From Thermoanaerobaculia bacterium (GTDB taxonomy: Bacteria; Acidobacteriota; Thermoanaerobaculia; UBA5066), in the NCBI GenBank assembly GCA_963719225.1, contig CAVRAY010000001.1, positions 3,136,001 to 3,200,000 on the forward strand: a stretch of DNA of 64,000 nt. The letters are read 5' to 3'. The notes under the pieces were generated by a model. The model saw only the letters and a program-made list of their open reading frames with translations, was not told the origin of the DNA and made no database searches. A program made the translations under genes and the position numbers. Below are positions 2-47,947 of this stretch, one piece after another. The stretch's first letter is position 1. Each line of letters begins with the position of its first letter.

Positions 2-169
2 GTTTCGCGCAAGCACGCACAGGTGATCGTCGGGCCCTCCGGCGTCTTCGTCGTCGACCTCGAATCGGAGAACGGCGTCGTCGTGAACGGGCGGCGCGTG
101 GACAAGGTGCAGCTCGCGGACGGCGACGTGCTCACGCTCGGCAAGCAGCGGCTCGTCTTCCACGCCTGA
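2..169 (+). CDS. FHA-domain protein, C-terminal fragment (5' end outside window)
   Basis: Manual translation VSRKHAQVIVGPSGVFVVDLESENGVVVNGRRVDKVQLADGDVLTLGKQRLVFHA* has the FHA SRxHA, DLxSxNG and L.DGD.L.LG motifs; TGA at 167-169. Confidence 0.9.
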   Translation, partial: VSRKHAQVIVGPSGVFVVDLESENGVVVNGRRVDKVQLADGDVLTLGKQRLVFHA

Positions 170-234
170 CGCGGCCACGGGCTGCGCCGGCCCCGCTTCT
201 TGACGGAGTTACCGGGTAATCCGATCATCGATCG

Positions 235-2361
235 GTGCAAGAGTCCGAAGGAATCGAGACCGCGCGACTTCTGCCGCCGGCGGGGACGAATGCTCCCTTC
301 GGCCTGCACGTCGTTCTGGACGTCCCGGGCACCGACCCGGGCCGGTCTCCTTTCGTGCGGCTTTCCGAGGCCGACGACCTGGCGCGCGTCTATCTGGCTG
401 CCGTGAAGGGGGACGACGGCACTCTGATCGAACTTTGTGCGCTGAAGCTGGTACCGGACGCATGGCCGGAAGGCGTCGCGCCGGGAGCGCTCGATCTGAC
501 GAACCGCGATCTCGAGGAGCGCTGGGAAAGAGAGAGATCGCGTCTCGTCGGTCTCAACGCGCAGTCGCCCCACTTCCCTCGCCTCGTCCGGCTCGACGAT
601 CCCGCAGGAGAGACGGGCGACCGCCTCCCCCCGCTCCTCTTTTCGCGCGTCGAGCGCTCGTTCTTCGTTCCGCCCTGCCCCGCCTGCAAGAGCCCGCTCT
701 CGCTCTGCCGCGACGAGGCATGGCTCGCGCACACGGGCCTCCCTTCCTACGCTTCGTCGCGGGAGCGCTTCGTCTGGTGCGAAAGCTGCGCCCAGGGACA
801 CGGAGCGCCGACCGTCTACTCGACGTCGAAGATCACCACACCGGGCGCGATCGTCCGCTCGGCCGGCGACCTTCTTGACGACCTCCAGCGCGCTCTCCGC
901 GAAGTCCTGACGGAGGAGGAGGCCGCGGCTCTGGTGGGCCCCCAGACCGCGAAAGCCGCACGGGCCGACCGGGCCAACGTGCGGGATCTCTTCACGCCGC
1001 TGACGTTTTACGGATCGCCCTTCCTCGTGACCGTGGCGGCTCCTCTCGACCTCGAGTCCCTCGCCGATGCGCTGGGCGGCAGGCCCTGGGAGGAATTCGA
1101 AGTGCGCCTCGCCCGTGCGGGCGGCGCCCTTCCGGCACGTTGGGCCTGGCTCGTCAAGGCCCCGCCACCGAATCGGCGGCTCCTTTTCGCTCAGGAGAGC
1201 AGCGGCCTCGATGCCGTCGAGATCTTCTTTCTGAAGCTCACCGCGTTCCGCCAGATCCTCGACGGTCTCGTCGACTATTACCGGGCCGCGGGACGGCCTC
1301 ACCTGGACCTCCATCCCCGTCATCTGCTCTTCGAGCTTTCGGGAGCCGGCGACGGCCTTCCGCTCCTCTGGACGTTCCAGGTCCGGATCCACGGGCTGGC
1401 CGCGGCCGCGCTGGCGCTCAAGGCCCCGGGCAATCCCTCGGTCGTCCTCCCCGGACACGGCATCGGCGTCCCCTACGCGTCCTCCGAGATCCAGGAGTTC
1501 CGCCTGGCCGGCTACCGGCCGTGCGAGCTCGTCTTCACCGACCTCGAGGAGGACAGCGCGGGATCGCGCCGCTTCCACGTACGCGGCCGCGTCTCCGATG
1601 CGTACGGGCTGTATCCCGCGCCGCAGCCGCGCGACACGATCTTCCTGTCGGTCCCCGATCCGGCTCTCGACTTCGGATTCACCGGCCTCTCCGTCCGGGC
1701 GGTGCCCGGAGAGATCCGCTCGGGCGAAGCCGTGTTCACGAGCGAGCTCGTCGCGCTCGAGGAAAACGGACTGCGCCGGCTCCGGATGGCTCTCGGCACG
1801 AAGATCCCCGGCGCGCGCTACCGCGTCTTTCCGGATTTCGGCACGCCGAGCGACCTGCACGCGCTCGGCGTCTCCCTGCTCCGCCTCCTGCTCCGGAACG
1901 ACGGACAGGACGTCGCGACCGTGGTCCGGACCGCCGAGCGGCTCTCCCGCGAAATCTCGGGACTCGCGCCCGGAGAGTCCCGCCGCGGCGTCACTCTCTC
2001 CGCGCTGCTCAAACGCGTTCCCGATGCGGCGGGAGTCTTCTCGAAGACACAGATCTTCTGGAGCCAGGACGACCGCCGCGCCGGGCGTCCGAATGCCGTT
2101 CCGGAGACGCTCTGGGAGCGTGCCCTCCTCCTCGCTCTCCGCCTCGTCACGCGCGCCGCGGGCTTCTCGGTCGCGGCGACTCCCGCCGACTTCGATCCGC
2201 TCTTCCGGGAGGAGAAGCTCGAACGGATCATCCCCGAGGTCGTGTCGCTCCTCGCCGAGCTTCAGACGCTCCTCTTCGAGCGGCAGTCCGTGCACCTCGA
2301 GATCCAGCAGGTTCTGGCGGAGATCCAGGAGAGCGAGCGCTCCTCCGAGGCGCGCCGATGA
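235..2361 (+). CDS. Divergent Ser/Thr kinase-fold protein (probable pseudokinase) with Cys4 Zn-ribbon-like insert
   Basis: 708 aa. Kinase-like motifs in order: ARVYLA, CALKL, EERWERE, HLDLHPRHLL, SDLHALGVSLLRLL. CPAC...C...CESC lies in an insert. Stop overlaps the next ATG (ATGA). Confidence 0.65.
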   Translation: MQESEGIETARLLPPAGTNAPFGLHVVLDVPGTDPGRSPFVRLSEADDLARVYLAAVKGDDGTLIELCALKLVPDAWPEGVAPGALDLTNRDLEERWERERSRLVGLNAQSPHFPRLVRLDDPAGETGDRLPPLLFSRVERSFFVPPCPACKSPLSLCRDEAWLAHTGLPSYASSRERFVWCESCAQGHGAPTVYSTSKITTPGAIVRSAGDLLDDLQRALREVLTEEEAAALVGPQTAKAARADRANVRDLFTPLTFYGSPFLVTVAAPLDLESLADALGGRPWEEFEVRLARAGGALPARWAWLVKAPPPNRRLLFAQESSGLDAVEIFFLKLTAFRQILDGLVDYYRAAGRPHLDLHPRHLLFELSGAGDGLPLLWTFQVRIHGLAAAALALKAPGNPSVVLPGHGIGVPYASSEIQEFRLAGYRPCELVFTDLEEDSAGSRRFHVRGRVSDAYGLYPAPQPRDTIFLSVPDPALDFGFTGLSVRAVPGEIRSGEAVFTSELVALEENGLRRLRMALGTKIPGARYRVFPDFGTPSDLHALGVSLLRLLLRNDGQDVATVVRTAERLSREISGLAPGESRRGVTLSALLKRVPDAAGVFSKTQIFWSQDDRRAGRPNAVPETLWERALLLALRLVTRAAGFSVAATPADFDPLFREEKLERIIPEVVSLLAELQTLLFERQSVHLEIQQVLAEIQESERSSEARR

Positions 2362-4328
2362 GCGCGCCTGCTTTCGTCGCCGTCGAGGTGTGGCTCGGAC
2401 CGATGGAAGGCCTTCGCTACGTCGCCCCGGCCGGGAACGCGACGGCCACGATCCACATCGGCCGTGTCTCCGTGGACAAGAAGACGAACACGAAGAACGA
2501 GTTCGTGCTCTCCTACGGCCACGGCGTGTCGTCGACGCACGCCGAGCTCCGCTTCGAGCGCGGCCGCCTCTTTCTGAAAGACGCCGGGTCGACGAACGGG
2601 ACATCGATCCAGTCCGGTCACGTCACCGGCGAGGTCGAGATCCGTTCCGGCGACGTCTTCCTCGTCTCCTCGACTCCGGTCAAGGTCCGATTCGTCGACG
2701 CGCCCCTTCCCGAGATGCCGTTCCCGCGCGTCCTCAGGGGGGAGGCGTGGCCGGACCCTGCGGTTCAGAGCATCATGCAGGGTGCCCGCGAGGCGGCCGT
2801 CCAGCGCGGCGAGCTGTTCACCGACACGCGCCACCTCTGCGACGCGATACTCCGCTCGCGCAGCCCGAGCATTCAGCGGATCCTCAGGGACGCGACCTGG
2901 TCGCGCGAGCAGGCGCTGACGGAGCTCTGGGAAGGCCGCCTCTTCGCGGGGACCTACACGTGGCTGAACGATCTTTTCCTGCAGCCCATCGGCCTCAAGA
3001 CCGGCTCCGACGAGCTGATCCTCTCGCCCAAGGTCGGGTTCCTGCTCGAGGAGGCCCAACGCAGCCAGGTCGAATCGTCGGCGGTGGAGCTGGAGACGAC
3101 GCTCCGCCACGAGCTCCTGACGTTGCTCAGGCGGGACACGGAGAGCGCCGTGGGCTCGTGGCTCGCCCGACGGCTTCCGGACCTCACCCCGAAGGAGAAG
3201 CCGAAGCCGTCGACGCCTGCCGCCTCCGGTCGTCCGTCGACACCCGCCGCGACGCCTTCGTCGCCTTCCGGCCAGATCCGGCGCCCGCCGATCACGAAGA
3301 CGAAGCCCGTGAAAGCAGCGGAGGTCTTCGTCGAACGCGTCGCGAACCTCCTCGACGAGAAGACCCCGAAAGCCAGCTCTCTTCCTCCGGTCGAAGAGGC
3401 GGCGCTCGAGCACGTGCACGCTCCCGCCGGACCGGGCGCAGCGCTCGCCGGCGCTCCGCTCACCGCGGAGGAGATCGCTCTCGACCGGAAGGCGCGTGAG
3501 CTCGGCGACGCGCTCCTGCGCGAGTCCGCCGCCTATCGCTTCTCGACGCCGGCCGACCGGCGCGAGGCTCTCCGGTCACTCGTCGTCAAGGAGCTTCACA
3601 CTCTCCAGCCCGGGCGCCGGCCGCGCGTGCTGGAGCAGCTCCGGCTCCAGTTTCCCGTCGTCGCCCCGGGCGACGTGCCGAACCTCGAGGAGCTTCGGCT
3701 CCGACGCCGGGTGGCCGAGCTGGAGAAGCGTCTCGCCGAGGCCGCCTCCCGGCCGGCCGCGGCCGCCTCCAAGACGGCCGTCGCCTCCGCTCTGCCGTGG
3801 CGGACCCTGCTGACGAAGGACGACGACAAGGCTTCGACCCTCGAGCCCAGGCTCGCCGTCGTGCGCGACGTCCTCCGGTTCGCCCAGGACGTCGAGACGT
3901 TCGTCCTCGGGCTCGTCGAAGCGATGACGATGCCGGGGGCCGAGACCGCGAGCTTCCGCCTTCCGAACTTCCGCGACCGGCTGAGCGGTTTCCTCGCGAC
4001 GGCCGCCGAAGGGAAGGACGTGAACCCGGACGACGTCCGGGACTACCTCGCCGAGCTGCGCCGCTGGCAGATCGCCATTTCGGCGGGGCATCACGAGGCT
4101 CCGAAGTTGTGGTTCACCAAGCTCTGGAAGAGAATCAGCCCGTCCGTCATCGAGGCGGGGAAACCGGGAGGAGCGGGGTGGAAGCTCCGCGGGGAGACGG
4201 CCGAATGGTGGAACCAGTATCGCGACCTCGTGAAGGACCTCAACCCCGATCTCGTTCAGGACCAGGTTCTCCAGGCCGCGGCGCACTTCTCGCAGGCGGA
4301 ATACGACAAGCTCAACAAGAGGAAGTAG
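2358..4328 (+). CDS. tagH: T6SS FHA protein (TagH/Fha-like) with inserted Clp N-terminal-like repeats
   Basis: N-terminal FHA (IGR...VSSTHAEL...LKDAGSTNGT). Clp-N-like segment (QSIMQGAREAAVQRGELFTDTRHLCDAIL; ILSPKVGFLLEEAQ). C-terminus resembles the TagH C-domain (LAELRRWQIAISAG...ISPSVIE...AEWWNQYRDL). Start set at ATG 2358. Confidence 0.75.
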   Translation: MSAPAFVAVEVWLGPMEGLRYVAPAGNATATIHIGRVSVDKKTNTKNEFVLSYGHGVSSTHAELRFERGRLFLKDAGSTNGTSIQSGHVTGEVEIRSGDVFLVSSTPVKVRFVDAPLPEMPFPRVLRGEAWPDPAVQSIMQGAREAAVQRGELFTDTRHLCDAILRSRSPSIQRILRDATWSREQALTELWEGRLFAGTYTWLNDLFLQPIGLKTGSDELILSPKVGFLLEEAQRSQVESSAVELETTLRHELLTLLRRDTESAVGSWLARRLPDLTPKEKPKPSTPAASGRPSTPAATPSSPSGQIRRPPITKTKPVKAAEVFVERVANLLDEKTPKASSLPPVEEAALEHVHAPAGPGAALAGAPLTAEEIALDRKARELGDALLRESAAYRFSTPADRREALRSLVVKELHTLQPGRRPRVLEQLRLQFPVVAPGDVPNLEELRLRRRVAELEKRLAEAASRPAAAASKTAVASALPWRTLLTKDDDKASTLEPRLAVVRDVLRFAQDVETFVLGLVEAMTMPGAETASFRLPNFRDRLSGFLATAAEGKDVNPDDVRDYLAELRRWQIAISAGHHEAPKLWFTKLWKRISPSVIEAGKPGGAGWKLRGETAEWWNQYRDLVKDLNPDLVQDQVLQAAAHFSQAEYDKLNKRK

Positions 4329-4333: not shown

Positions 4334-4804
4334 ATGCCGATCTCCGAAGCGAAGCCCGACCGGTTCCTCCAACTCACCGCTCTCACCCTCGTGCTCGCAG
4401 GCGCCGCGTTTGCCGGAGCCTGCGGCTCCGCCTCGGCGACCGTGGCGTTCAAGTGCGCGCCCGAGATCAACGGCGGGACTCTCCTCACGGTCGACGTCGT
4501 TCGGGCCACCGAACCCGAGGTCGAGAGGATCCGCGCCCTCGGCGAAAAGTGGTTCTACGACCCGCTCCGCGAGTCCCTGCGGGACAGGACGCGGACGGCC
4601 ACCTTCTCGCAGAGCGAAGGCCGGTGCGAAAAGGAGGTGACCGTCCCGGCGACCAAGGATGACAAGTTCCTGGTGATCGTCGCGGACTACCGTTTCCAGA
4701 GCGCCGACCCGGGGCGCTACCTCGTCGTGCTGCGAAGGGACCAATGGAAGGGCCGGACGATCCGGGTCCAGGTCCGCGACCGGGAATTCTCGATCGTCCA
4801 GTGA
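4334..4804 (+). CDS. tssJ: TssJ-like T6SS lipoprotein
   Basis: Hydrophobic signal with lipobox FAGAC, EING...LTVDVV and LVIVADYR motifs; directly upstream of tssK. Confidence 0.7.
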   Translation: MPISEAKPDRFLQLTALTLVLAGAAFAGACGSASATVAFKCAPEINGGTLLTVDVVRATEPEVERIRALGEKWFYDPLRESLRDRTRTATFSQSEGRCEKEVTVPATKDDKFLVIVADYRFQSADPGRYLVVLRRDQWKGRTIRVQVRDREFSIVQ

Positions 4805-6171
4805 AGAAAAGCAGACCTGTCCTCTGGGCCGAGGGAATGTTCCTTCGGCCGCATCACCTGCAGGCGGCGGAGCGATTCCGGGAGGAGGCGCTCCACGACG
4901 AGGTGCGGCGCATCCAGCCTTTCTTCTGGGGCGTCACGCGAATGGAGATCGCCGCGGACCAGCTCGAGAACTTCGTCTTCGAGCTGCGCGACATCGAGGC
5001 GAAGCTGAAGGACGGGTCCGTCCTCTCGGCCGGCTCGAACCTCCGGATCTTTCCGCGCCCGTTCAAGGTCGAGCTCGAGCAGGCGGGCGGCCGGATGGAC
5101 GTTTTCATCGGCGTGCCGGTCTTCCGGGAGGACGCGCCGAACACGTTCTTTCCCGGAGAGGACCGGCGGGGCCAGGACCGCCGCCTCACGGCCGAAGTCC
5201 TCGAGGTGCCGGACGAGAACACGGGCGCGAACCGCCAGCCCGTCGAGACGCGCCTCGTGAACGGGCGCCTCTTCTTCGGGAGCGAGACCCGGGACGGCTA
5301 CGAGTGCGTGCCCCTCGCGATCGTGGAGCGCTCGGGCCAGGGGAAGAACTTCCCGATCCTCTCGAAGGACTTCATCCCGCCCGTGACGGAGATCGGGGCG
5401 TCGACCGCGCTCCAGACCCTCTGCGAGTCGGTCACGAACAGGCTCGAGGCCAAACATCGGCTCGTCCTGACCGAGGTCGCCTCGGGGCGGCTGACGATCG
5501 AGTCGGAAGGGACGTCGGGCTGGCAGACGCTCATGAAGCTGAAGATCCTCGGCAGCTTCGTCTACATCCTCCAGCAGCTCACGCGGATCCCGCGCGTGCA
5601 TCCGTTCCCGGTCTACTGCGAGTTCGCGCGCCTGCTCGGAGACCTCGCCATCTTCGACGAGGGGCGAAGGCCCCTGAAGGTGCCACTTTACGACCATGAC
5701 CGCCTCGGCCCCTGCTTCTTCGACCTCTGCCACAACATCGAGCTGCTCACCGAGAAAGTCGTCGCCTCGCGCTTCATCAGGGTCGAGTTCGTCCTCAAGG
5801 ACGATCTTCTCGTCGCCGAGATGCAGCCCGAATGGTTCACGAGCGAGGCGGAGTTCTTCCTCTCCGTGGAGACGGAGCTGCCCGAGCGCGAGCTCAAGGA
5901 GCGGCTCAACACGATGAAGGTCGGCGCCGTGCACGACATCCCGCTGCTGCGGCAACGGCGCCTCTTCGGCCTCGACCTCGAGATGCTCAAGCGGATCCCG
6001 TCGGGGCTTCCGGCCGGAGACGACCACTACTACTTCACGATCGAGAAGGAAGGGATCTACTGGGCCAACGTGGTGAAGGAGCACGTGATGGCCGTCTCGG
6101 GCATGCTCGATCCGAAGCTCAGGTTCTTCCTCTATGTCGTTACCAAGCCGATGAGCGCGACCCGTGGATAG
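4801..6171 (+). CDS. tssK: T6SS baseplate subunit TssK
   Basis: VLWAEGMFLRPHHLQ N-terminal signature and YDHDRLGPCF motif; GTG start overlaps the previous stop. Confidence 0.93.
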   Translation: MKKSRPVLWAEGMFLRPHHLQAAERFREEALHDEVRRIQPFFWGVTRMEIAADQLENFVFELRDIEAKLKDGSVLSAGSNLRIFPRPFKVELEQAGGRMDVFIGVPVFREDAPNTFFPGEDRRGQDRRLTAEVLEVPDENTGANRQPVETRLVNGRLFFGSETRDGYECVPLAIVERSGQGKNFPILSKDFIPPVTEIGASTALQTLCESVTNRLEAKHRLVLTEVASGRLTIESEGTSGWQTLMKLKILGSFVYILQQLTRIPRVHPFPVYCEFARLLGDLAIFDEGRRPLKVPLYDHDRLGPCFFDLCHNIELLTEKVVASRFIRVEFVLKDDLLVAEMQPEWFTSEAEFFLSVETELPERELKERLNTMKVGAVHDIPLLRQRRLFGLDLEMLKRIPSGLPAGDDHYYFTIEKEGIYWANVVKEHVMAVSGMLDPKLRFFLYVVTKPMSATRG

Positions 6172-6862
6172 CAGCAACAGCACGACCGATCTCTTCCGGC
6201 TCTGCTCCCGCCTTTTCCTGTTCCTCAGCTCGTTCCGGCAGAAGGTCCGCCGCGGCGTGAAGCTCGAGCCCGACGCGGTCGCCGCCGACCTCGAGGAGAT
6301 CTTCGACGAGCAGGCGCGCAACGCCCGGAGCGACCCGCGCCTCGACGCGCTCTACGAGAAGGCGCGCTATCCGCTCGTCGTCCTCGCGGACGAGATCCTC
6401 CTCCATTCCGGCTGGGAACACAGCGCGGAATGGGAGCAGCGCATCTTCGAGGAGAAGTACTTCAAGACGAACATCGGCGGCGACCAGTTCTTCTCGATCG
6501 CCAAGGAGCTCCGTTCCGAGGACGTCGAGCTCGCGGCCATCGTCTTCACCGGCCTGGCGCTCGGGTTCCGCGGCAAGTACCGCGAGCGCCCCGAGAAGGC
6601 CATCGAGATCAAGAACCGCGTCTACCGCCTCCTGGCGGAATACCTCGCGGACGTCGGCGACAAGATCACGCCCGAGGCGTACCACGTCACGGCGGCCCCG
6701 GCGCGCAAGCTCTCGCCCGCGATCACCCTCGCGCGCGTGGCGATCGTCGGCGTGGGAATCCTCTTCCTCTACTACGCGATCACGTGGCTCATGTGGGCCC
6801 GCTCGGTCGACGACCTCCGGACGGTCGTGCAATCCATGGGCCTCGCGATGGGGCTGATGTAG
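6164..6862 (+). CDS. tssL: T6SS membrane subunit TssL (DotU)
   Basis: ARYPLVVLADEILL, GGDQFF, LALGFRGKY motifs and a C-terminal TM helix. Confidence 0.93.
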   Translation: MDSSNSTTDLFRLCSRLFLFLSSFRQKVRRGVKLEPDAVAADLEEIFDEQARNARSDPRLDALYEKARYPLVVLADEILLHSGWEHSAEWEQRIFEEKYFKTNIGGDQFFSIAKELRSEDVELAAIVFTGLALGFRGKYRERPEKAIEIKNRVYRLLAEYLADVGDKITPEAYHVTAAPARKLSPAITLARVAIVGVGILFLYYAITWLMWARSVDDLRTVVQSMGLAMGLM

Positions 6863-36603: not shown

Positions 36604-36619
36604 GTCTTCTCTTCCCGTG

Positions 36620-37202: not shown

Positions 37203-37321
37203 CTGAATAGAGCGCCGCGATGCTACACCTGCCCGGACACGCCCGTCTGTCGTCTTTTTCCCTCCGTTTTCGATCTCTTAGGTGAGAGGCGACGATCGCT
37301 TCGAGGAAGGAGGGTGATCCC

Positions 37322-38286: not shown

Positions 38287-39063
38287 TCAGCCCTTCAGCG
38301 CTTCGGGAGCGTTCGCCTCGATGACCTCGAGGAGCTTTTCGCGGAAGGGATCCTTCATCTCCTCGATGTCCCGGGCGTTCACCACCTCTTCGAAGGCGTT
38401 CAGACCGGAGATCTCCGTGCTCTCGATGAGGACGTCGTCCGGGGGCCGCACGGTTCGGACGCTCGAGGAGATGCACGTGACCGGGACCTCGCCGAGACCC
38501 GGGAGCTTTTCCGTGACGACCGGGAACCGGAGAGCCTCGAAAACCGCGAGGAGCCCGGCCTGCCGCGTGAGAACGGTATCCAGGACGAGCGCGTGCAGGA
38601 TCACGTTCTTGACCTGCGAGGCGTCGGGTATTTTCGCGGACATGAGCTCCCTGAGGCGCGTGGGCGCGAGTCCCGAGTACGTGAGGATCCACTTGAGGGG
38701 CTGCGTCACGGTGACGGTCTTGCTCTCTCCCCCCGACTTCGCGACGTGCAGATAGTCGAGAGGAACGAGCTCGACGTTGGAGCTCAGGATCTCGATGGGA
38801 TGGCTCAGCTCCTTCGGAAGTCCGTAGGGCCGGCCTCCCGCGACCGCCTCGTAGCGGCTTCGGAGATCTCGGAAAGCCGCATCCGAGCCCTTGACCTCGG
38901 CTTTCGCGCTGCCCTCGACGAAATCGCCGAGGATCGTGCGCGGCCTCAGCAGCAGAGTCACGGTACTCAGATGCTCCTTCAGCTCCGAGCGGAGCGATTC
39001 CGCGATCGCCCTCGTCAGCTTCCGGAGCGCCCGGAGTTTCTGGAGATCGTACCCTTCGTCCAT
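38287..39063 (-). CDS. Hypothetical protein, paralog A
   Basis: 258 aa, RBS GAGGA; aligns along its length with 39098-40213. Confidence 0.8.
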   Translation of the reverse strand: MDEGYDLQKLRALRKLTRAIAESLRSELKEHLSTVTLLLRPRTILGDFVEGSAKAEVKGSDAAFRDLRSRYEAVAGGRPYGLPKELSHPIEILSSNVELVPLDYLHVAKSGGESKTVTVTQPLKWILTYSGLAPTRLRELMSAKIPDASQVKNVILHALVLDTVLTRQAGLLAVFEALRFPVVTEKLPGLGEVPVTCISSSVRTVRPPDDVLIESTEISGLNAFEEVVNARDIEEMKDPFREKLLEVIEANAPEALKG

Positions 39064-39097
39064 CTGACCTGAATCCTCCGTTCGGTCGCGGGGCGCC

Positions 39098-40242: not shown

Positions 40243-40989
40243 TCAAACGCCCTTCCGGCCAGTCAGTTCCGCGAAGACGCCACGGAACACGTCCTCGACG
40301 GGGCGGGGCTCGGAGACGTCGGGATGGGCCGAGGTCCACTCCGGGGCGAGGACGAGGGGAACCCAGGGAATGAAGCGCGTGATGGGGCCGGCCGCCCCGG
40401 CTCGCGCCAGCGCCGGCCAGACCTTCGTCGGCAGCTCGACCTGGTCGATGATCCCCGGTTTCGGGTCGGCGCAGTTCGCGGCCGGCGAGGTGACGAGGTA
40501 CTCGCGACAGCTGATCGGCCGATCGGCATGGATGGAGCAGCTTTCCTCTTCGAGAAACGGACACGGGATGCCGAGGTGGAAGTACGCGAGTCCGAATGGC
40601 GTCGCTTCGCTTTCCACGAAGCTCTCCCGGTCCTCGAGCTTCGCGAGAAGTCCCGCCCCAGCCAGGCGCTCGCGAGCGCGCGTGAACCGGTCGCGGATCT
40701 CCGAGCGCCGAGGCTCGGGAAGCTCGTCGACGAGCCGGCCGATGCGGCGCGCCTCGACCTCGGAGATCGGGACGAGCTGGCGGCAGCAGGCGCCGCAGCC
40801 CTTCCGGCACGAGACGGTTCGCCCCTCGGCGTTCGCCCGCGCCTCGGCCAGACCGACGATGCCGTCCGCGACCTTCTGAAAAACGGGCAGGAGCGATTCC
40901 AGCCGCGCGGGTGCCGCCGGGAGGCTCAGCTCCATCTCGACCTCGTCGTCCCAGACCTTCATTCCGACGCGAATCGTCACCTGACGCAT
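40243..40989 (-). CDS. YkgJ-family cysteine-cluster protein (CxxCxxCC, Zn/Fe-binding)
   Basis: SCRKGCGACCRQLV and CPFLEEESCSIHADRPISCREY. Confidence 0.9.
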   Translation of the reverse strand: MRQVTIRVGMKVWDDEVEMELSLPAAPARLESLLPVFQKVADGIVGLAEARANAEGRTVSCRKGCGACCRQLVPISEVEARRIGRLVDELPEPRRSEIRDRFTRARERLAGAGLLAKLEDRESFVESEATPFGLAYFHLGIPCPFLEEESCSIHADRPISCREYLVTSPAANCADPKPGIIDQVELPTKVWPALARAGAAGPITRFIPWVPLVLAPEWTSAHPDVSEPRPVEDVFRGVFAELTGRKGV

Positions 40990-41091: not shown

Positions 41092-41904
41092 ATGCCCTCG
41101 TGGATTCCGGGGTACCGCCTGGTGGAAGGTCCCGAGCAGACAGGAGTCCCTTTCCGCTACCGCGCGGTTCGCGAATCGGACGGTGTCGCGGCGTGGATCC
41201 GCGTCGACGGCTTCGACGCGTCTTCGGACCGTGCGGCGATGGCGGTGGACGCGATCTACACCGGCACGGCGCACTTCGACCATCCGCTCGTTCCGCCTGT
41301 TCTCGACTTCGGCTCCACAGAGGTTGCCGGACGATCCTTCATCGCCTACCAGATCTCCGAGCCGGTCGCCGGCGGCGGGCACCGGACGCGTCGGGGAACG
41401 ATGATCGCTCTCGCCGAGGTGCAGATCGCGGCTTTCGAGTGCGGCTTCGCGGGCATCCACCTCCCGCTCTCCGAGCTGCTCCGCCTGCGCGAAGGGGAGC
41501 GGCTCGAGGCACGGCACCTTCCCGTGAACGAGTTCCTCTGCGAGCCTCTTCCCGCGGGGAGCGGGAGCAGTTTCGCCGGACTCGAGGCTGAAGCGGAAGC
41601 CGCGCCCTTCCTTCCGCCGGAGATGCGCGCCGGGTCCCGCGGCCCTTCGATGCGCGCGGCTCTCGCCTACCGCCTGGCCGCGCAGCTCCACGTGCTTCTC
41701 GAGGGTCACGTCGCGTCAGACGCGCCCCTCGAAGAAGCGGAGAAGACGATTGCCCTGTCGGCCCTCCCGTTCCCGCCCCGAATCTCCGTGGAGCCGGACG
41801 CGCCGAGGGATCTCGTCCGGCTCGGCCTGTCCCCGCAACCGGACGATCGCCCGGATCCGGAGAGCTTCCTGACGTTCCGCCTTCCGTCCCCCAAACCAGC
41901 ATGA
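41092..41904 (+). CDS. Highly degenerate kinase-fold protein (pseudokinase)
   Basis: GYRLVE...YRAVRESDG, FDHPLVPPVLDFG, APFLPPEM, AYRLAAQLHVLLEG, LGLSPQPDDRP; no VAIK Lys, HRD or DFG at the expected positions. Confidence 0.6.
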   Translation: MPSWIPGYRLVEGPEQTGVPFRYRAVRESDGVAAWIRVDGFDASSDRAAMAVDAIYTGTAHFDHPLVPPVLDFGSTEVAGRSFIAYQISEPVAGGGHRTRRGTMIALAEVQIAAFECGFAGIHLPLSELLRLREGERLEARHLPVNEFLCEPLPAGSGSSFAGLEAEAEAAPFLPPEMRAGSRGPSMRAALAYRLAAQLHVLLEGHVASDAPLEEAEKTIALSALPFPPRISVEPDAPRDLVRLGLSPQPDDRPDPESFLTFRLPSPKPA

Positions 41905-41939
41905 GACGATCGAACAGCTCCTGCGTGGAGGGGACGACG

Positions 41940-42773
41940 ATGCAAAACGGGCGCAACCTCGGCAAGAGTGGTTTCTTCGCTGCCGCGCTCCTGGCCCTGG
42001 TGATGGCGGCCCGGGCCGGAGCGCAGACACCGATCCCCACGCTCCCGCCCCTGCCGCCGCTGCCGGCCGCAGGCGAAACGTCGACGCCGGCGGCCACCGT
42101 CACGCTTCCGCCTCCCACGCCGTCGTTCACGCCTGAAGCCGTCGGCACCCCACCGGCCACAACGCCGCCGCCCACGCCGGCCGCCGCGCGTCCGGCGGAC
42201 CGGCCCGCGGCCGCCGAGACACCCGGCGGCCTGCCGTCGACCGTCCTCCTCCTGCTCGGCATCGGCGTCCTCGTGCTCGTCGCGACGCTCGTCGTCGTGC
42301 TGACGGTGCTTCTCAAGAAGCCCGTCGTGATCAACGTTCCCTCGCGTTCCGCGGCGCCGCCGCCGGTTCCGCAGGGACCTTCTCCCGCGGGATGGACGGA
42401 CGGCGGCGTCGTCCATGCCGGGCAGCCGCCCGCCGGTGTGCTGGACGTCCTGCCGGGACGGTTCCTCGTGGACGAAGGCGACCACGAGACCGAGATCCGG
42501 ATTTTCCGCACCGCTCCCGGCGAGCGCGTCGAGACGACGATCGGCCGCGACCCGGGCCCGCCCTATCGCCACATCCAGCTCCTTCCGGCCTCCGTCTCCG
42601 GCAAGCACGCGAAGCTCGTCTTCGACAAGCGAAGCTACTCGCTCATCAACTACGCCCGGACCAACCCGACCAAGGTCAACGGCGAGGAGATCGAAGAGAA
42701 CGCTTCGCGGCGTCTCGTGGACAGCGATCGCATCGAGATCGGTGAGGTCGTCATGACGTACCGCGAGGATTGA
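41940..42773 (+). CDS. Membrane-anchored FHA-domain protein
   Basis: Signal peptide, Pro/Thr-rich segment, TM (VLLLLGIGVLVLVATLVVVLTVLL), C-terminal FHA (TIGR...SVSGKHAKL...TNPTKVNG...DSDRIEIG). Confidence 0.85.
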   Translation: MQNGRNLGKSGFFAAALLALVMAARAGAQTPIPTLPPLPPLPAAGETSTPAATVTLPPPTPSFTPEAVGTPPATTPPPTPAAARPADRPAAAETPGGLPSTVLLLLGIGVLVLVATLVVVLTVLLKKPVVINVPSRSAAPPPVPQGPSPAGWTDGGVVHAGQPPAGVLDVLPGRFLVDEGDHETEIRIFRTAPGERVETTIGRDPGPPYRHIQLLPASVSGKHAKLVFDKRSYSLINYARTNPTKVNGEEIEENASRRLVDSDRIEIGEVVMTYRED

Positions 42774-42782
42774 GGATCGAAA

Positions 42783-44240
42783 GTGGCCGTCGAAGAGGGC
42801 ACGCTCGCGCCCCGGTATGTCGCCGGCGGCCTTTCCGAGAAAGGGCGTCGGGAATCGAACGAGGATGCCGCCATTCTCGCGGTGCTCCCGCCGTCCTCCG
42901 CTCTTCGGGCGTTCGCCGTCCTCTGCGACGGCATGGGTGGCCACAACGCGGGTGAGGTCGCCTCGCGCCTCGCCGTCGAAATCATCAAGGAGAAGATCCA
43001 GGCCTTCGGCGCGCGCCCCGACGCTTCTTCCCTCCCGCCGCCGGCGATCGAGGCCGAGATCCGCGAGTGGATCGCCGAAGTCAACCGCGAGATCTACCAG
43101 CGCGGAAAAGCGTCGGCCGAGCAGAAGGGAATGGGGACGACCCTCGCGTCCGCGATGGTGCTCGCCGACGACCGCCTCATCGTGGCCAACGTCGGCGACA
43201 GCAGGATCTTCCTCGTCTCGGGATTGAGCGTGAGGCAGCTCTCGGTCGACCACACGGCCCTCGCCGAGCAGCGGCGTGCCCTCGGCTCCGATTCGGTCGC
43301 TCCCGAGGACGACGCCAGCAATCCCTTCGCGCACGCTCTCACCCGGAGCCTCGGCCAGGAGAAGAAGGTCGATCCCGACGTGCGCGGCGACGTGACGCTC
43401 GCTCCGGGCGACGTCGTCATCCTCACGACCGACGGCGTCACCGACGTCCTCGAAGCCGAGCGCTTCCTCACGGCGATCGAGGCGACGGGGAGCCTCCAGG
43501 AGACGGCCGAGGAGATCTATCGCCTCGCCTTCGAAGCAGGCTCGAAGGACAACATCTCGGTCGCGCTCCTTTCGCGCGGCACCCCCGCCCGGCTCGGGGT
43601 CGGCAAGACCGGCCAGCTGGCCGGTGTCTCGTCCGGACCTTCGCCGATCGACGACGAGATGCTCGTTGCGGGGGCAGCCTCGGGGCCCGTCTTGGAGTCG
43701 GCGCCCCCGCGGCGCGCGGGCCGGCGTGCCGCGTTCGGCGTCGCGGCGCTCGCGCTCGTCGCCCTCGTCCTCGCGCTCGGCGTCTTCCTGCGGCAGTCCC
43801 CGACTCCAAAAGTGGCGCCGGCCGCCGTTCCTCCGTCGCCCCAGCCGGTCCCGAGCGTCCCCGTGTCCGTGGCGCCCGCGGCCCCGACGCCGCTTCCGGC
43901 CGTGGCCTCGCCGCCTCCCCGGGCATCCGAGGCTCCCGCACCCGGCGCGCGGATGCCCGTGACGCCACGTCCCTCTCCCCGAACGGCTCGCGCGCCCGCA
44001 GAGCCATCGTTCCGGACTCCGGCCGCCCTCAGCGGTCTTCAGCCGCTCGAGTTTCCGCCGACTCCGACGGAGACGCCGACGGCAACCCACACGCCGATTC
44101 CGACGGACACGCCGACCGCGACGCCCACGGCCCCTCCCGCTGCATCCCCGGGAAAGGCGAAGCCGTCCACGCCGGCCGCGCCCGTTCCACAGCCCGTCCC
44201 GACGCCCGCAGCCACCGCCCCGAACGCCGTCAGTATTTGA
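42783..44240 (+). CDS. PP2C-family Ser/Thr phosphatase with TM and Pro-rich tail
   Basis: GRRESNED, LCDGMGGHNAGEVAS, GMGTT, NVGDSR, DHT, LTRSLG, TTDG, GSKDNIS. Confidence 0.93.
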   Translation: MAVEEGTLAPRYVAGGLSEKGRRESNEDAAILAVLPPSSALRAFAVLCDGMGGHNAGEVASRLAVEIIKEKIQAFGARPDASSLPPPAIEAEIREWIAEVNREIYQRGKASAEQKGMGTTLASAMVLADDRLIVANVGDSRIFLVSGLSVRQLSVDHTALAEQRRALGSDSVAPEDDASNPFAHALTRSLGQEKKVDPDVRGDVTLAPGDVVILTTDGVTDVLEAERFLTAIEATGSLQETAEEIYRLAFEAGSKDNISVALLSRGTPARLGVGKTGQLAGVSSGPSPIDDEMLVAGAASGPVLESAPPRRAGRRAAFGVAALALVALVLALGVFLRQSPTPKVAPAAVPPSPQPVPSVPVSVAPAAPTPLPAVASPPPRASEAPAPGARMPVTPRPSPRTARAPAEPSFRTPAALSGLQPLEFPPTPTETPTATHTPIPTDTPTATPTAPPAASPGKAKPSTPAAPVPQPVPTPAATAPNAVSI

Positions 44241-45387
44241 AGACGAGGAAGGCCGCGAGGGCGCACGCCGCCAGGAATGCGAGGATCCCCAAGGCCAGGA
44301 CGAGCCGGGCGACACCGGGTCGCGAGCCGATTCCGGGCAGGACTCCTTCGGACGGAGATGTTTCCCGGGCCGGCGCCTCGACACGGGCCGGCGGAGGCGG
44401 TGCCTCCGGAAACACGACGGCGCGCAGCCTTCGAAGCGTCGGCGCGGCTTCGAAGCGCCGCGGCAGGAGCGCATACCCGATCGACGCGGCGCTGTAGATG
44501 GAAGCAGGCGACGCCGGGAGATCGAGGATCGGCCGCGGGTGGAGCCGCCGAAGCTCGCCCAGCCGCCTCACGACGGCATCGGAAGGTGGCCGCTTTTCGA
44601 TCTCGGTCTCGAGCAAGCTCTCCACGAGCGCCGACAGGGCGCCGTCTCCCTCGCCCGCATCGGCTCTGAGCTCCAGCTTCGGCGCCGCTCTCTTCTTCTG
44701 CGCCTTCATGACGCGGTCCGGCGTCTCGCCGGGGAAAGGCGGCTTCCCCGAGAGCCACTCGTAGAGGAGGACTCCGAAGGAAAAGACGTCGCTCCGGGGA
44801 TCGACGAGACCGGCGGCTCCATCTCCCTGCAGCAGCTCGGGTGAAGCGAAGGGCACGCGGCCGAGGAAAGCTCCCGCCATGGTCAGATCCTCGTTCGACG
44901 AGATGTCCTTGGCGACGCCGAGATCGATCAGCCGCGGGTTGCGGCCGAAGCGCCGCGTCTCGACGAGGACGTTGTCGAACGCGATGTCGCGGTGGAGGAT
45001 TCCCTGGATGTGCAAGGCATCGAGAGCCGAAGCGATGCCGTAGGCGAGACGAATGACCTCGTGAAGGGGCGCGGAGCGATAGGCCGCGAGCGGCTCCCCC
45101 TCGATCCACTCCATCAGCGCCCAGCCGGTCGAGCCGTCCTCCTCCTCGCCACATCCGTAGAGGGCCGGGAACGCCGGATGCTCCATCCGCGAGAGGATCC
45201 GGCACTCACGCCGAAACCGCTCGCGGGGGCGGAAGGCGGGGTCCATCCGGTCGAACGGATAGATCTTCGCGGCGAGCCGGGTCCCGGTCTCGCGGTGCCG
45301 CGCCGAGAAGACCTCACCAGAGCCGCCCCGCCCCACCATCTCGCCGAGGTCGATCTCCTCGAGGCCGAATCCGAAGCGCGACGTCAC
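44230..45387 (-). CDS. Ser/Thr protein kinase with C-terminal TM helix
   Basis: VGRGGSGEVF, AAK, HRDIAFDN, IDLG, FASPE, SDVFSFGV. Confidence 0.9.
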   Translation of the reverse strand: MTSRFGFGLEEIDLGEMVGRGGSGEVFSARHRETGTRLAAKIYPFDRMDPAFRPRERFRRECRILSRMEHPAFPALYGCGEEEDGSTGWALMEWIEGEPLAAYRSAPLHEVIRLAYGIASALDALHIQGILHRDIAFDNVLVETRRFGRNPRLIDLGVAKDISSNEDLTMAGAFLGRVPFASPELLQGDGAAGLVDPRSDVFSFGVLLYEWLSGKPPFPGETPDRVMKAQKKRAAPKLELRADAGEGDGALSALVESLLETEIEKRPPSDAVVRRLGELRRLHPRPILDLPASPASIYSAASIGYALLPRRFEAAPTLRRLRAVVFPEAPPPPARVEAPARETSPSEGVLPGIGSRPGVARLVLALGILAFLAACALAAFLVFKY

Positions 45388-45399
45388 CTGCCGCTCCCC

Positions 45400-46038
45400 T
45401 CACTTCGTCGCGGGGGCGGGGGCGGGGGCTCCCTCGAGGCGCCGGAGGCGCGTGTCGAGGTTGCCGCGGTCCTGAACGTAGGTCTTCCCGAAGTCCTCGG
45501 CCCACTTCTCGACGGCCTTCAGGGAGGTCCTGAGCTCCGCGGTTTCCCGGCGCGCCGCCGCGGCCTCCTGCTTCGCCGCTTCGATGTCGGCCTGCAGCAG
45601 CTGACGGATCCCTTCCACCTCGCGACGTTGGGCCTCCTGCTGCTCGGCGAGCTTCTTCTCGAGGCCCGTCATGGCGTCGAGGACCGGCTGGATCTGCTTC
45701 CGCGTCGCCGCATCCATCGACTGGATCTGATTTTCGAGAGTCGTTTTCGTCGCGACCTGACTCCGAAAGGCCTGGAAGATGAGCGTGCCGAGCGCCGCCG
45801 CGACGACGACGAACGCGGCGGTCAGGAAGGCCAGCCCGATCTTCAGATTCCGGTTCGAATGCCCGATCGAATCGGCGAGGTTCTTGAAGAAGATCGTCGA
45901 GCCCTGAACCACACCCTGCCCCCTCGATCGGGCACGCGCGTCGGAGAGCATGTCTCTCAGGGACTTCGTTTCGGCGGCGGTCGTGCTCGAGGCGGTCGCG
46001 TCGACGTCGCCGGGACGTCCGGGTCGGTTCTCGGTCAT
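45400..46038 (-). CDS. Single-pass membrane protein with coiled-coil domain
   Basis: RBS AAGGAGG; TM IGLAFLTAAFVVVAAALGTLIF; heptad-rich C-terminus. Confidence 0.75.
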   Translation of the reverse strand: MTENRPGRPGDVDATASSTTAAETKSLRDMLSDARARSRGQGVVQGSTIFFKNLADSIGHSNRNLKIGLAFLTAAFVVVAAALGTLIFQAFRSQVATKTTLENQIQSMDAATRKQIQPVLDAMTGLEKKLAEQQEAQRREVEGIRQLLQADIEAAKQEAAAARRETAELRTSLKAVEKWAEDFGKTYVQDRGNLDTRLRRLEGAPAPAPATK

Positions 46039-46048
46039 GGCCCCTCCT

Positions 46049-47947
46049 TCATTCGAGCTCGGGGTGAACGAATCTCTGGGCCGCCGCGGCGACGACCCCC
46101 GTGGGACCGGCGTGGCTGCTCCGCCGCGGTTCACCTCCGGAGCCACGCAGGACGGAGATCAGGACCCACAGGATGGCGGCGAAGAGGACGACGATGGCGA
46201 CGATGATCGCTCCGATGCCGATCATGCGGAGGCGACGGCCGGCCGGATCGGGGACAACAGCCGAGACAACGGGCGCCCGCGGGGGCGGGACCGGGCGCGG
46301 CGCCATGGCGGCAGGCGGCGGCTCCCCGTAGACGACCACCCTCCGGCCGCCCTTCGGTCGCACCGCGGGGGGCGGCTGGGTCGTGTGGCCGGAGGGACGC
46401 TCCGGCTCGAGACGCATTACGGGCGGGGATGGTGGCGGTGACCCGAGAGCGTCCGGAGTCGACGGCTGCTTGAGGGGAGGAAGGGGTTCCCGGGAGGACT
46501 GCTGCCTCAGCTTCGCGATGATGTCGTCGAGCCTTTCCGTCTTCTCTTCGACGCCGTCCGACGGAGCGCTTTCCGGCTCGGGCGGCGAGCTCTTCGCCGC
46601 GCCACCCGACCACATGGAGATCTCGGAGAAGCTCAGCGGGGTCTCGGGCACGACGGTCGGCGCCGTTTTCGTCGGGGGAACGACGGTCGGCCCCGTTCTC
46701 GTCACCTCCGACGAGGCCGGCGGCGGAAGCTCCTCTTGAACCTGCTCCGTGATCCCTGGAGACACGGCGGAGAAGGTCCCGGGCGTCAGGGTCTCGTCGG
46801 GCAACGGGACGCCGGCCGAGGTCGACGTCGTCAGGCCAGGGATCGCGGATGCGTTCGAGGAAGCCTGCGAAGAAGGCAGTGATTGGAAGCGCTCCGTGGG
46901 CGACTCGGGCACTTCGAGGTCGGGCCATCTCTTCTGCTGGGAGGCCTCGACGGAAAGAGGGCGTTCCTCTCCCGCGGCCGCCGGAGCCGGGCGGGCGGCC
47001 GAGGGCGAAGGGGACGGTGGGGAGGAAGGGTTGGAGGAGCCGATCCTCCCTTCGACAGGCGGAGGGAGCGTCCGGAGCGTGAGAGGGTCGGGCTCGAGCG
47101 AATCCGGGACGCCGCGCTGAACGCGATCGAGCGCGTCGAGGATCTCCTCGTAGCTCTGGGGCCGATCCTCCGGGCTCTTCGAAAGCATCCGGCGGACGAT
47201 GGCCCGCATCGGCTCCGGCAGCGGCGGCGCGCCGGCCGGCGTCGGGACCTCGAACGTATTCTCCTTCTGGTGCGCCACCAGCCAGTCGTAGTAGTTCCCA
47301 TGGCGGGCTACCGTGATCGGCGGCTTTTTCGTCAGGAGCCGGTGGAAGATGACGCCGAGGGAGTACACGTCGCTCCGCCAGTCGATGCTCGCGGGAAAGA
47401 AATGCTCCGGCGAGGCGAACGCGAATTTCCCGAGGAACTGTCCCGTCCGCGTCTTCACGTCGCCGTCCTCGGCCTGCTGCTCGAGGATCTTCGCGACTCC
47501 GAAGTCGAGGATCTTCGTCACGCGGGTCTGGTTCTCGAGTGTCACGAAGATGTTGTTCGACGAGAGATCACGGTGAACGATGTTCTGGCTTCGGAGGTAG
47601 GAGAGGCCCATCAGGGCCTGGACCATCAGCGGCAGGAGCTCGGGATACGGCCGCCCTTCGAAGGCACGGAAGTCGACGCCGTCGACGTACTCCATCACGA
47701 TCGAGAGAACGCCGTCCGTCGACTCCGTGATGTCGTAGCAGCGCACGATGTTCCGGTGGTTCAGCGCCGAGAGGATCCTGTTTTCCTTCAGGAACCGCGC
47801 CCGATGCTCGGGGTCGAACTCCCGCCGCGACATGACCTTGATGGCCACGGGCAGGCCGGTCCGCCGGTCACTCGCCAGATAGACGAGCCCCATTCCCCCT
47901 TCGCCGAGGACGCAGGAGATCGTGTAGTTCTCGAACTCCGGCGACAT
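46049..47947 (-). CDS. Ser/Thr protein kinase with Pro/Ser-rich linker and C-terminal TM
   Basis: LGEGGMGLVY, VAIK, HRDLSSNN, DFGVAK, FASPE, SDVYSLGV, SKSPEDRP. Confidence 0.93.
   Translation of the reverse strand: MSPEFENYTISCVLGEGGMGLVYLASDRRTGLPVAIKVMSRREFDPEHRARFLKENRILSALNHRNIVRCYDITESTDGVLSIVMEYVDGVDFRAFEGRPYPELLPLMVQALMGLSYLRSQNIVHRDLSSNNIFVTLENQTRVTKILDFGVAKILEQQAEDGDVKTRTGQFLGKFAFASPEHFFPASIDWRSDVYSLGVIFHRLLTKKPPITVARHGNYYDWLVAHQKENTFEVPTPAGAPPLPEPMRAIVRRMLSKSPEDRPQSYEEILDALDRVQRGVPDSLEPDPLTLRTLPPPVEGRIGSSNPSSPPSPSPSAARPAPAAAGEERPLSVEASQQKRWPDLEVPESPTERFQSLPSSQASSNASAIPGLTTSTSAGVPLPDETLTPGTFSAVSPGITEQVQEELPPPASSEVTRTGPTVVPPTKTAPTVVPETPLSFSEISMWSGGAAKSSPPEPESAPSDGVEEKTERLDDIIAKLRQQSSREPLPPLKQPSTPDALGSPPPSPPVMRLEPERPSGHTTQPPPAVRPKGGRRVVVYGEPPPAAMAPRPVPPPRAPVVSAVVPDPAGRRLRMIGIGAIIVAIVVLFAAILWVLISVLRGSGGEPRRSSHAGPTGVVAAAAQRFVHPELE

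Follow-up and report, generated by a model that had tools for sequence, protein, structure and literature searches.

The T6SS is a harpoon used by bacteria for injection, and the locus described here raises the question of which of the unusual genes around its core belong to the machine, and whether they make it a new kind of T6SS. The window (the whole 64,000 nt stretch that was analysed) comes from the genome of an uncultured Thermoanaerobaculia lineage (Acidobacteriota) and carries a T6SS-i locus (Table 1). A first-pass annotation, made from the sequence alone, had read it as possibly an uncharacterised subtype with one integrated accessory layer. Neither part was supported, and we tentatively read the locus as a T6SS-i whose sheath is i4-like and which is inherited along with two accessory modules: one likely gates assembly, the other likely tunes sheath recycling.

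Table 1. Features of the locus, in window positions.
Feature	Position	Strand	Basis or remark
FHA gene, 3' end (311 aa; coiled coil and FHA)	1..169	+	Left end of block; start 767 bases upstream of window
Pseudokinase, soluble (708 aa; Hanks-kinase fold, Cys4 insert, beta insert)	235..2361	+	Model, structure search, alignment
TagH/Fha-like (FHA, residues 33-102; Clp-N-like insert, ~2721-3173; TagH C-terminal helical domain, ~3471-4325)	2358..4328	+	Pfam, profiles
tssJ-like lipoprotein	4334..4804	+	No family match; IglE_N look-alike
tssK	4801..6171	+	Pfam/NCBIfam
tssL, short form, without OmpA domain	6164..6862	+	Pfam/NCBIfam
tssM (1461 aa)	6867..11252	+	Pfam
tagF, Pro-rich tail	11272..12693	+	Pfam/NCBIfam
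hcp, two copies (12802-13287 and 13491-13979)	12802..13979	+	Pfam/NCBIfam
tagJ (ImpE)	14052..14864	-	Pfam/NCBIfam
tssA, short type (397 aa)	14987..16180	+	Pfam/NCBIfam
tssB, tssC, tssE, tssF	16110..20607	+	Frameshifted in assembly; intact in relatives
tssG	20604..21596	+	Pfam/NCBIfam
tssH/clpV, one frameshift	21639..24375	+	N-domain groove uncharged
vgrG	25268..27562	+	Pfam/NCBIfam
PAAR + DUF4329 gene (frameshifted) and small gene 3' of it	27586..29319	+	Variable cargo
TssB-TssC fusion, TssBC (501 aa; VipA core, VipB N-domain)	29913..31418	-	Pfam, alignment to solved TssC
PKMT homologue, full-length relative to Rickettsia PKMT1/2	31498..33048	+	Pfam, sequence homology
Strain-variable cargo: ECF sigma, split kinase, TPR genes	33074..38239		Outside conserved system
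Par1 (258 aa) and Par2 (353 aa), paralogue pair	38287..40159	-	Confident model, no known fold
YkgJ-type CxxCxxCC protein	40243..40989	-	PF03692
Signalling block: degenerate kinase-like ORF (+), membrane FHA (+), membrane PP2C (+), membrane kinase (-), membrane coiled coil (-), membrane kinase (-)	41092..47947	mixed	Right end of block

That the locus encodes a T6SS is practically certain. Pfam and NCBIfam models confirmed tssA, B, C, D (two hcp), E, F, G, H, I, K, L and M, with tagF and tagJ, in place, so that the claim of a complete tssA-M core held for 12 of 13 genes, which are whole in orthologues. The thirteenth, TssJ, is a candidate by position, lipoprotein features and a look-alike: the lipoprotein in the TssJ position had no match in Pfam, NCBIfam or the PDB, PF12790 was unmatched in 13 homologues, and 37% of the members of the second ESM look-alike cluster carry IglE_N, a recognition below the tool's mark that serves as a lead. 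The C-terminal ~980 residues of TssM matched no Pfam family and no PDB sequence. The PAAR + DUF4329 gene and the small gene downstream are likely an effector/immunity pair.

Subtype labels for T6SS-i were taken from PMC9113992. In a quick IQ-TREE phylogeny of TssC (not TssB; 52 rows), the TssC of the window falls in one clade (SH-aLRT 96) with those of Ralstonia, Azospirillum and Granulicella (i4), at 62–66% identity; with 10 reference loci and the SecReT6 set left out, the tree separates group 4 but not i4a from i4b. The sheath thus lies inside i1–i5, and the locus is no new top-level subtype.

Around this core, the family-wide, conserved, unstudied and T6SS-linked set consists of the Cys-rich pseudokinase, TagH with its Clp-N insert, TssBC, the PKMT homologue and Par. 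Among 61 genomes, the pseudokinase was found in 22 (including 20 of 20 TssK-positive relatives), PKMT and Par in 20 each and TssBC in 19, against 0 (TssBC), 0 (PKMT) and 1 (Par) among 39 T6SS-negative relatives, a pattern drawn from non-independent kin and largely that of one island that comes and goes as a whole. Co-occurrence, as the first-pass annotation had expected, and not the lack of it that had been set beforehand as counting against the idea, was therefore what the relatives displayed. In other lineages, all 50 Par-carrying genomes also have TssK, yet the pseudokinase is absent from 45 of them, and within 10 kb of Par at 64 distant loci lie TssBC (14), PKMT (12) and YkgJ (4), so the genes do not make up a single obligatory unit. 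A functional link of the pseudokinase, TssBC, Par and PKMT to the T6SS, beyond a positional one, is nevertheless very probable.

The signalling genes behave differently. Three FHA proteins, three kinases, a PP2C and an ECF sigma are all present as annotated; however, the ECF sigma, its split-remnant kinase and the TPR genes are mobile cargo unrelated to the system, and the second Par, YkgJ, the two membrane kinases, PP2C and the membrane FHA protein accompany the T6SS in this genus only. Outside the genus the kinase/PP2C block is not adjacent to the T6SS, and the genome holds ~60 further kinase matches. The kinases at 44230 and 46049 have one membrane helix near the C-terminus with <50 residues beyond, short of the periplasmic sensor of PpkA/TagE. 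An ORF proposed as a second pseudokinase (41092–41904) bears only a weak likeness to a kinase C-lobe (hhalign E 0.045).

The kinase-fold/Cys4 protein upstream of tagH was correctly recognised in the first pass: a structure search with its predicted model returned the kinase fold (Z 17.3, rmsd 3.7, 262 aligned), Foldseek gave no match at E<=0.001, and the cysteines are at 148/151/182/185. It has no membrane helix, and so differs from the PpkA/TagE membrane kinases. It heads tagH-tssJKLM in 13 of the 13 relative loci with those genes on the fetched contig, sits next to tssKL at 16 of the 20 Planctomycetota loci, and forms an FHA fusion in 8 of 26 long homologues, seven of these with a TagH-C-like tail. 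The TagH C-terminal profile matches the tails of the fused homologues (E 7e-4). TagH itself has FHA above and T6SS_FHA_C below the cut-off (E 0.014), and classes as TagH/Fha. The profile of its insert matches Clp/Hsp100 N-domains only (43 of 43 rows, best E 1e-4), which bears out the proposed Clp-N insert for one repeat; the second is degenerate (hhalign probability 7.8, E 0.0045). In ClpV the alpha0 helix makes the TssC-binding groove, and a sequence alignment of the insert has no clear or conserved alpha0-like segment. The insert was not found in the 20 Planctomycetota loci. A predicted complex of the pseudokinase with the TagH C-terminal domain exceeded the best control (0.44 vs 0.00; >=48% of contacts, i.e., at least that share, common across runs; partner pLDDT at least 63) but reached only the tool's "weak support" band, which holds 18 of 157 solved complexes plus both of the 2 passing mismatches among 215 and, per the tool, is wrong more often than right unless the complex is likely beforehand.

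The annotated TssBC fusion is likewise real, with VipA and VipB matches within a single ORF. It lacks the TssB N-arm and the TssC C-terminal gp25-like domain, ending at residue 369 of the solved 494-aa TssC, ahead of VipB_2 (PF18945), for which there was no match, and is thus unlike TssC/TssC40. It retains an LLDEII-like helix, the strict pattern of which was found in only 9 of 23 TssBC sequences; a Gly at position 3 or the anchor search explains several of the misses. In the tree, TssBC homologues of Acidobacteriota, Planctomycetota, Roseobacteraceae and Betaproteobacteria group as a single clade (SH-aLRT 100), separate from every TssC. The PKMT-like methyltransferase, the Par1/Par2 paralogue pair and the YkgJ protein were also confirmed, PKMT by full-length homology to Rickettsia PKMT1 and PKMT2 (E 5e-64 and 7e-60). 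The 'methylase' label of the YkgJ-type protein, as in FliB/YkgJ, was not supported, the only feature seen being its CxxCxxCC motif (PF03692).

Could the locus be a pseudogene cluster in decay? The assembly carries frameshifts in tssB, tssC, tssE, tssF, tssH and the PAAR gene, and one relative has lost the block, but decay is very unlikely given the 51–54 non-triplet indels within 16.3–22.5 kb (43–45 single-base, 39–42 insertions), a substitution rate (10–14%) similar to that of the flanks, the absence of the extra base at the listed sites in contigs of related strains (four runs), and an otherwise intact block; the frameshifts in tssB/C/E/F/H most likely stem from read errors. We give as little credence to the idea that an ordinary i4 T6SS shares its island with extra genes that are inherited along with it as cargo and contribute nothing to the machine. 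It is true of the ECF/kinase/TPR genes, may be true of the kinase/PP2C/FHA block, and would fit the loss of the block as a unit (deletion scar, G012), but it accounts poorly for the pseudokinase-TagH fusions, for a pseudokinase that in another phylum adjoins tssKL on sheaths of differing clades, for a PKMT that follows the T6SS even where unlinked on the chromosome, for the constant company of Par and TssK, and for TssBC within the T6SS loci of Leisingera and Eleftheria.

Individual proteins also admit other readings. The 708-aa protein might be an active atypical kinase, a soluble PpkA substitute phosphorylating the TagH that it adjoins or is fused with; beta3 Lys71, alphaC Glu100 and catalytic Asp358 are retained, and X. 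citri PknS is in the tied top fold matches. This is quite unlikely, as the catalytic-loop Asn is His here and the DFG Asp is Gly, and the family keeps the catalytic Asp in 41 of 119 homologues while scaffold positions are almost invariant. The full Lys, Asp, Asn and DFG-Asp set of Hanks kinases, broken in the window protein, occurs in 10 of the 119, which, judged by these residues, could be active. For TssBC, a role as structural second sheath subunit has a precedent in Agrobacterium TssC40 (ImpD), which is needed for Hcp secretion, a non-redundant second TssC being known (PMC3702570), but in second TssCs of the Rhizobium/Planctomycetota type the C-terminal domain is present, and they branch as a clade of their own within TssC (SH-aLRT 99), whereas TssBC branches apart and stops near residue 370, making this role very improbable. 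Rather unlikely, too, is a phage-like length stop in which Par, as a remote gp15/Pvc16-like protein, caps the Hcp tube and TssBC is the sheath subunit that ends the chain. The two are neighbours with the same orientation in many loci, TssBC lacks the domain for recruiting the next ring, and a wide fold search with Par1 placed chains from contractile-tail neck or cap structures at ranks 1, 2 and 8 (8q01_M, 9b42_J, 7b5i_AA; Z 4.6, 3.9, 3.3; rmsd 6.5–10.9); however, Z <5 is the range of common arrangements, Par has no PHROG or PDB sequence support, and TssBC without an inner-layer domain may fail to dock on the sheath.

Under the two-module reading, we infer that phosphorylation and methylation exert control and that recycling is altered. 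The pseudokinase may be a non-catalytic scaffold binding the C-terminal domain of TagH/Fha, and this scaffold, with TagF, would decide whether the TssJLM-TssK platform forms; in the genus, two membrane-anchored, intact Hanks kinases and PP2C would provide phosphothreonine input for the FHA domains, replacing PpkA/PppA. Unable to build the inner sheath layer yet carrying outer domains and a ClpV-docking-type helix, TssBC would be a soluble, non-polymerising sheath mimic (ClpV bait or adaptor) that sets the level of free ClpV; the Clp-N insert of TagH might be a second, ATPase-free docking surface specific to this family. Par and PKMT may act on the tube/sheath side, with PKMT likely methylating lysines in T6SS proteins. 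That the gating and recycling mechanisms hold jointly is somewhat doubtful. It is on the unlikely side that, beyond Pseudomonadota, T6SSs rely on regulatory parts missing from model systems, i.e., a zinc-ribbon pseudokinase on TagH, a sheath mimic and ATPase-free Clp-N rationing ClpV, a phage-like cap Par, and lysine methylation of machine or cargo; if so, this would be the first pseudokinase-gated and the first methylation-tuned T6SS. The two-module reading, if right, would add routes by which contractile machines gate their assembly and recycling. Box 1 and Table 1 of a 2026 review (PMC13584744) confine T6SS-i to Pseudomonadota and name, as accessory factors, neither a pseudokinase nor a methyltransferase nor a sheath fusion. 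Four unannotated families track the T6SS in Acidobacteriota and Planctomycetota, and the accessory set includes a large protein family without annotation (1150 clusters at 50% identity). Cultured Pseudomonadota of marine and soil origin carry the sheath fusion as well, and it can be tested there.

Compared with T6SS-i group 4 (Ralstonia solanacearum i4b, Granulicella tundricola plasmid i4b, Azospirillum), the full core gene set is shared, but the membrane complex is divergent in TssJ and TssM, and the pseudokinase, Clp-N-bearing TagH, TssBC, Par and PKMT are extra; none of these five is named in the annotation of the Granulicella locus. As in the PpkA/PppA/Fha/TagF pathway (P. aeruginosa H1, Serratia, Agrobacterium), TagH with FHA, TagF, membrane Ser/Thr kinases and PP2C are in the locus, but here TagH has a Clp-N insert and a predicted soluble pseudokinase partner, PP2C is membrane-anchored, and the active kinases are genus-limited, with only a short segment past the membrane helix. 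In T7SSb, the EssB/YukC pseudokinase and the FHA protein EssC scaffold assembly of the secretion system; the likeness is one of analogy; the machine differs, and EssB is membrane-bound while the pseudokinase here is soluble with a Cys4 insert. Agrobacterium TssC40 is also a second sheath-like gene in its locus, but TssBC joins B to C, has no gp25-like domain and falls in a different clade. By the recycling classes in the relevant passages of Forster et al. 2014 (PMC4239648), which cover TagJ, ClpV, TssB and TssC, the uncharged ClpV groove, the LLDEII-type TssC helix (here LLxxIL) and TagJ place this system in the 'mixed' class of V. parahaemolyticus, from which it departs by having a truncated TssB-TssC fusion as well as a Clp-N-like domain that stands alone. 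Rickettsia PKMT1 and PKMT2, homologous to the window PKMT over its full length, methylate outer-membrane proteins, according to PMC8232902, whereas the gene here tracks the T6SS.

The window holds the sole T6SS locus of the host genome (4.75 Mb, 68% GC; Table), whose proteins have close homologues under the name Thermoanaerobaculia (Acidobacteriota). Genes were called with a codon model trained on that genome, and 51 ORFs were scanned with Pfam and NCBIfam, which recovered the following genes of the first-pass annotation: tssK, L, M, tagF, two hcp, tagJ, tssA, B, C, E, F, G, H and vgrG, together with a VipA+VipB fusion (TssBC), a PKMT-type methyltransferase (PKMT), an ECF sigma factor, three kinases, PP2C, three FHA genes and a CxxCxxCC protein (YkgJ). 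A complete tssA-M set had also been listed. Of its genes, TssJ matches no Pfam, NCBIfam or PDB entry; its position is occupied by a lipoprotein similar to an ESM cluster in which 37% of the members carry IglE_N, a lead only. Since the C-terminal ~980 residues of TssM, which are conserved (40%) across the family, are likewise without a Pfam or PDB match, these sequences point to a non-canonical membrane complex. The ORF annotated as a pseudokinase at the start of the kinase/PP2C/FHA block showed only a weak kinase likeness. Small strain-variable genes in the accessory block (amidase_2, peptidase-like and metalloprotease-like) are possible cell-wall effectors or cargo. Further downstream lies a pair of LysM genes, of which the first seems to be frameshifted, with a homologue within the T6SS cargo of the compared genome G028, and upstream of the window (fetched stretches L002:14996 to L001:4520, minus strand) there is very large, repeat-rich, adhesin-like coding sequence (one or more ORFs, >3000 codons).

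Features of the T6SS locus and its surroundings (window positions)
Feature	Position	Strand	Remark
708-aa protein	235-2361	+	pseudokinase
TagH	2358-4328	+	
TssJ-like lipoprotein	4334-4804	+	
TssM	6867-11252	+	
Small variable genes	29398-29910, 33074-35018, 37601-38239		
TssBC	29913-31418	-	
PKMT	31498-33048	+	
ECF sigma with split kinase and TPR genes	35085-37129	-	
Par1 and Par2	38287-40159	-	paralogue pair
YkgJ	40243-40989	-	
Kinase-like ORF	41092-41904		weak kinase likeness
Kinase/PP2C/FHA block	41092-47947		
tRNA-Asp	48023-48099		no att-like repeat for block
LysM genes	51324-52596	+	
tRNA-Val	53324-53398	-	no att-like repeat for block

Frameshifts disrupt six genes in the window assembly (tssB, C, E, F, H and a PAAR+DUF4329 gene), all of which are whole in the relative G003. 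Compared with three relatives, the 16.3-22.5 kb region contains 51-54 non-triplet indels (43-45 single-base, 39-42 insertions), at a substitution rate of 10-14%, the same as in the flanks, and the extra base at the sites inspected is absent from contigs of related strains (four runs). We infer a local patch of long-read errors, which fits better than gene decay.

The system had been proposed to be an uncharacterised T6SS subtype, and a sheath phylogeny (quick ML, 52 sequences, long branches flagged) spoke against this. TssC of this family is monophyletic (SH-aLRT 100) and nests in a larger clade (96) that also contains Ralstonia, Azospirillum and Granulicella, and Ralstonia and an Acidobacteriaceae plasmid are placed in i4b by PMC9113992, so that the window system is, by its sheath sequence, assigned to T6SS-i group 4; its membrane complex and accessory set are unusual. 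The TssBC sequences group on their own (100), and a further clade (99) is made up of second copies resembling TssC40, the protein treated in PMC3702570.

Co-occurrence of the accessory genes with the T6SS had been proposed as a check, and among 61 genomes of the relatives set (own, genus, family and order) it was found for the 708-aa protein, PKMT, TssBC and Par. TssK was detected in 20/61 genomes and the 708-aa protein in 22/61, including all 20 TssK carriers, the other two being fragmented assemblies. PKMT, TssBC and Par occurred in 20, 19 and 20 of the 61, corresponding to 18, 17 and 18 of the 20 TssK-positive genomes and 0, 0 and 1 of the 39 T6SS-negative ones; for two misses (G008 and G016), the contigs stop within or shortly past vgrG. 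Because kin are not independent, these counts show one block that was gained and lost rather than separate events. Outside the host genus PKMT is remote from the T6SS locus, yet it is present in 7/7 T6SS-positive genomes; tandem duplicates or triplicates of it were seen in several relatives (G003:C4:1282699-1287384; G007; G033:C82). All seven genus members for which the whole locus was fetched share the gene order tssBC, pkmt, par1, par2, ykgJ, kinase-like ORF, FHA, PP2C, kinase, coiled coil, kinase. The membrane kinase at 44230 was found in 12/14 T6SS-positive and 0/14 T6SS-negative members of the genus, and in only 2/7 T6SS-positive genomes of other genera (~50% identity). Both ends of the block are marked by a deletion scar in the relative G012 (G012:C18, L272), where the upstream FHA gene runs directly into the last kinase, of which 133 codons from the 5' end are left; what remains of Par2 is on a different contig of that genome. 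The tRNA-Asp gene was rejected as an integration site, there being no repeat of at least 14 bases on the left side and the block lying at a neighbouring position in relatives.

A precedent for an ECF sigma factor regulating a T6SS is EcfK/PknS in Xanthomonas, and the ECF sigma gene here had been counted as part of the accessory layer. A regulatory role in the conserved system was not borne out: the ECF/kinase/TPR block is missing at this place from 7/7 genus members with a whole locus, the genome has a 77% paralogue at another site (C1:2.28 Mb), and a whole 808-aa copy is carried by the T6SS-negative relative G021. The unit is a mobile ECF-kinase module.

The model of the 708-aa protein (pLDDT 80) shows the fold of a protein kinase (VIA Z 17.3 over 262 aligned residues, rmsd 3.7; the top rows are tied), and Foldseek gave no match to it at E<=0.001. 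The protein retains Lys71, Glu100 and Asp358 and lacks the Asn of the catalytic loop and the Asp of the DFG motif; among 119 homologues, the Lys, the catalytic Asp, the Asn and the DFG Asp are present together in 10 and the four Cys in 74. The family comprises 1150 clusters at 50% identity. In a Planctomycetota sample (301 genomes; the phylum of a Gemmataceae genome) there were 29 matches, 21 of them at E<1e-10, and 16 of the 20 loci fetched from these 21 had tssK and tssL in the stretch; the loci with T6SS genes have sheaths from different clades. An FHA fusion was found in 8/26 long homologues, 7 of these with a TagH-C-like tail. The TagH middle-domain profile matches solely Clp/Hsp100 N-domains (43/43, best E 1e-4), with an hhalign E of 0.0045 to the ClpV-N of its own locus versus 0.22-0.7 for five controls, and this Clp-N insert was not seen in the 20 Planctomycetota loci. 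Complex prediction, proposed earlier for the accessory proteins, was run for the pseudokinase and TagH-C and offered weak support (score 0.44, best control 0.00).

The Par1 model is confident (pLDDT 91), and a search of 48,161 chains gave Par no fold at Z>=5; there was also no Foldseek match at E<=0.001, and no PDB, PHROG or plasmid match. Three of the top eight rows in the Par1 fold search, all at Z<5, came from contractile-tail neck or cap structures, a weak lead to a possible kinship with such proteins. There were 103 genome stretches with Par, mostly in Acidobacteriota, of which the best 80 were kept and, after dropping 16 close rows, 64 remained. Within 10 kb of Par, these 64 had a T6SS gene in 44, TssBC in 14, PKMT in 12 and YkgJ in 4. 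Par-carrying genomes from these stretches had TssK in 50/50 searched (one, G110, unpublished) and the pseudokinase in only 5/50, and three of these 5 belong to the family and are included in the counts above. Of 30 distant metagenomic Par loci at least 5 kb long, roughly half showed T6SS genes, and TssBC also occurs on plasmids of Leisingera and Eleftheria, within T6SS loci. Because of this distribution beyond the family (Planctomycetota pseudokinase loci, Par loci and TssBC plasmids), the accessory layer is, as far as sequence can tell, two modules. The first consists of the pseudokinase and TagH together with the membrane complex, the second of Par, accompanied or not by TssBC and PKMT.

Upon the established anatomy, folds and co-inheritance, a scheme can be proposed in which the pseudokinase would be a TagH scaffold gating assembly, the genus-specific membrane kinases and PP2C would provide the input to this gate, and TssBC would serve as a non-polymerising ClpV bait. 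PKMT, which matches Rickettsia PKMT1/2 (the subject of PMC8232902) across 470 residues, may methylate T6SS proteins. The text of a 2026 accessory-factor review (PMC13584744) does not contain 'pseudokinase', 'methyltransferase', 'Acidobacter' or 'Planctomyc', and Acidobacteria T6SS genes are mentioned, not dissected, in the accessible parts of PMC9113992 and bioRxiv 2021.04.09.439258. A search of an open-access library found no paper on these accessory proteins.

TssBC covers VipA positions 17-125 and the VipB N-domain. Since the match extends no further than residue 369 of a solved TssC of 494 aa, TssBC is without the gp25-like domain, which we take to be the inner sheath layer. According to PMC4632598, the inner layer is joined by augmented beta-strands and domain 3 is used in ClpV recycling. 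In the Leisingera plasmid (L050:17592-21704) the TssBC unit forms the C-terminal part of a ~1370-aa protein with an N-terminal extension, and in the Eleftheria terrae plasmid (L051) an R-body (RebB) cluster adjoins a T6SS that has TssBC and four hcp genes. An LLDEII-like helix was found by strict pattern in 9/23 TssBC sequences. The ClpV groove residues are aliphatic, TssC has an LLxxIL helix and TagJ is present, a combination that corresponds to the mixed class of PMC4239648.
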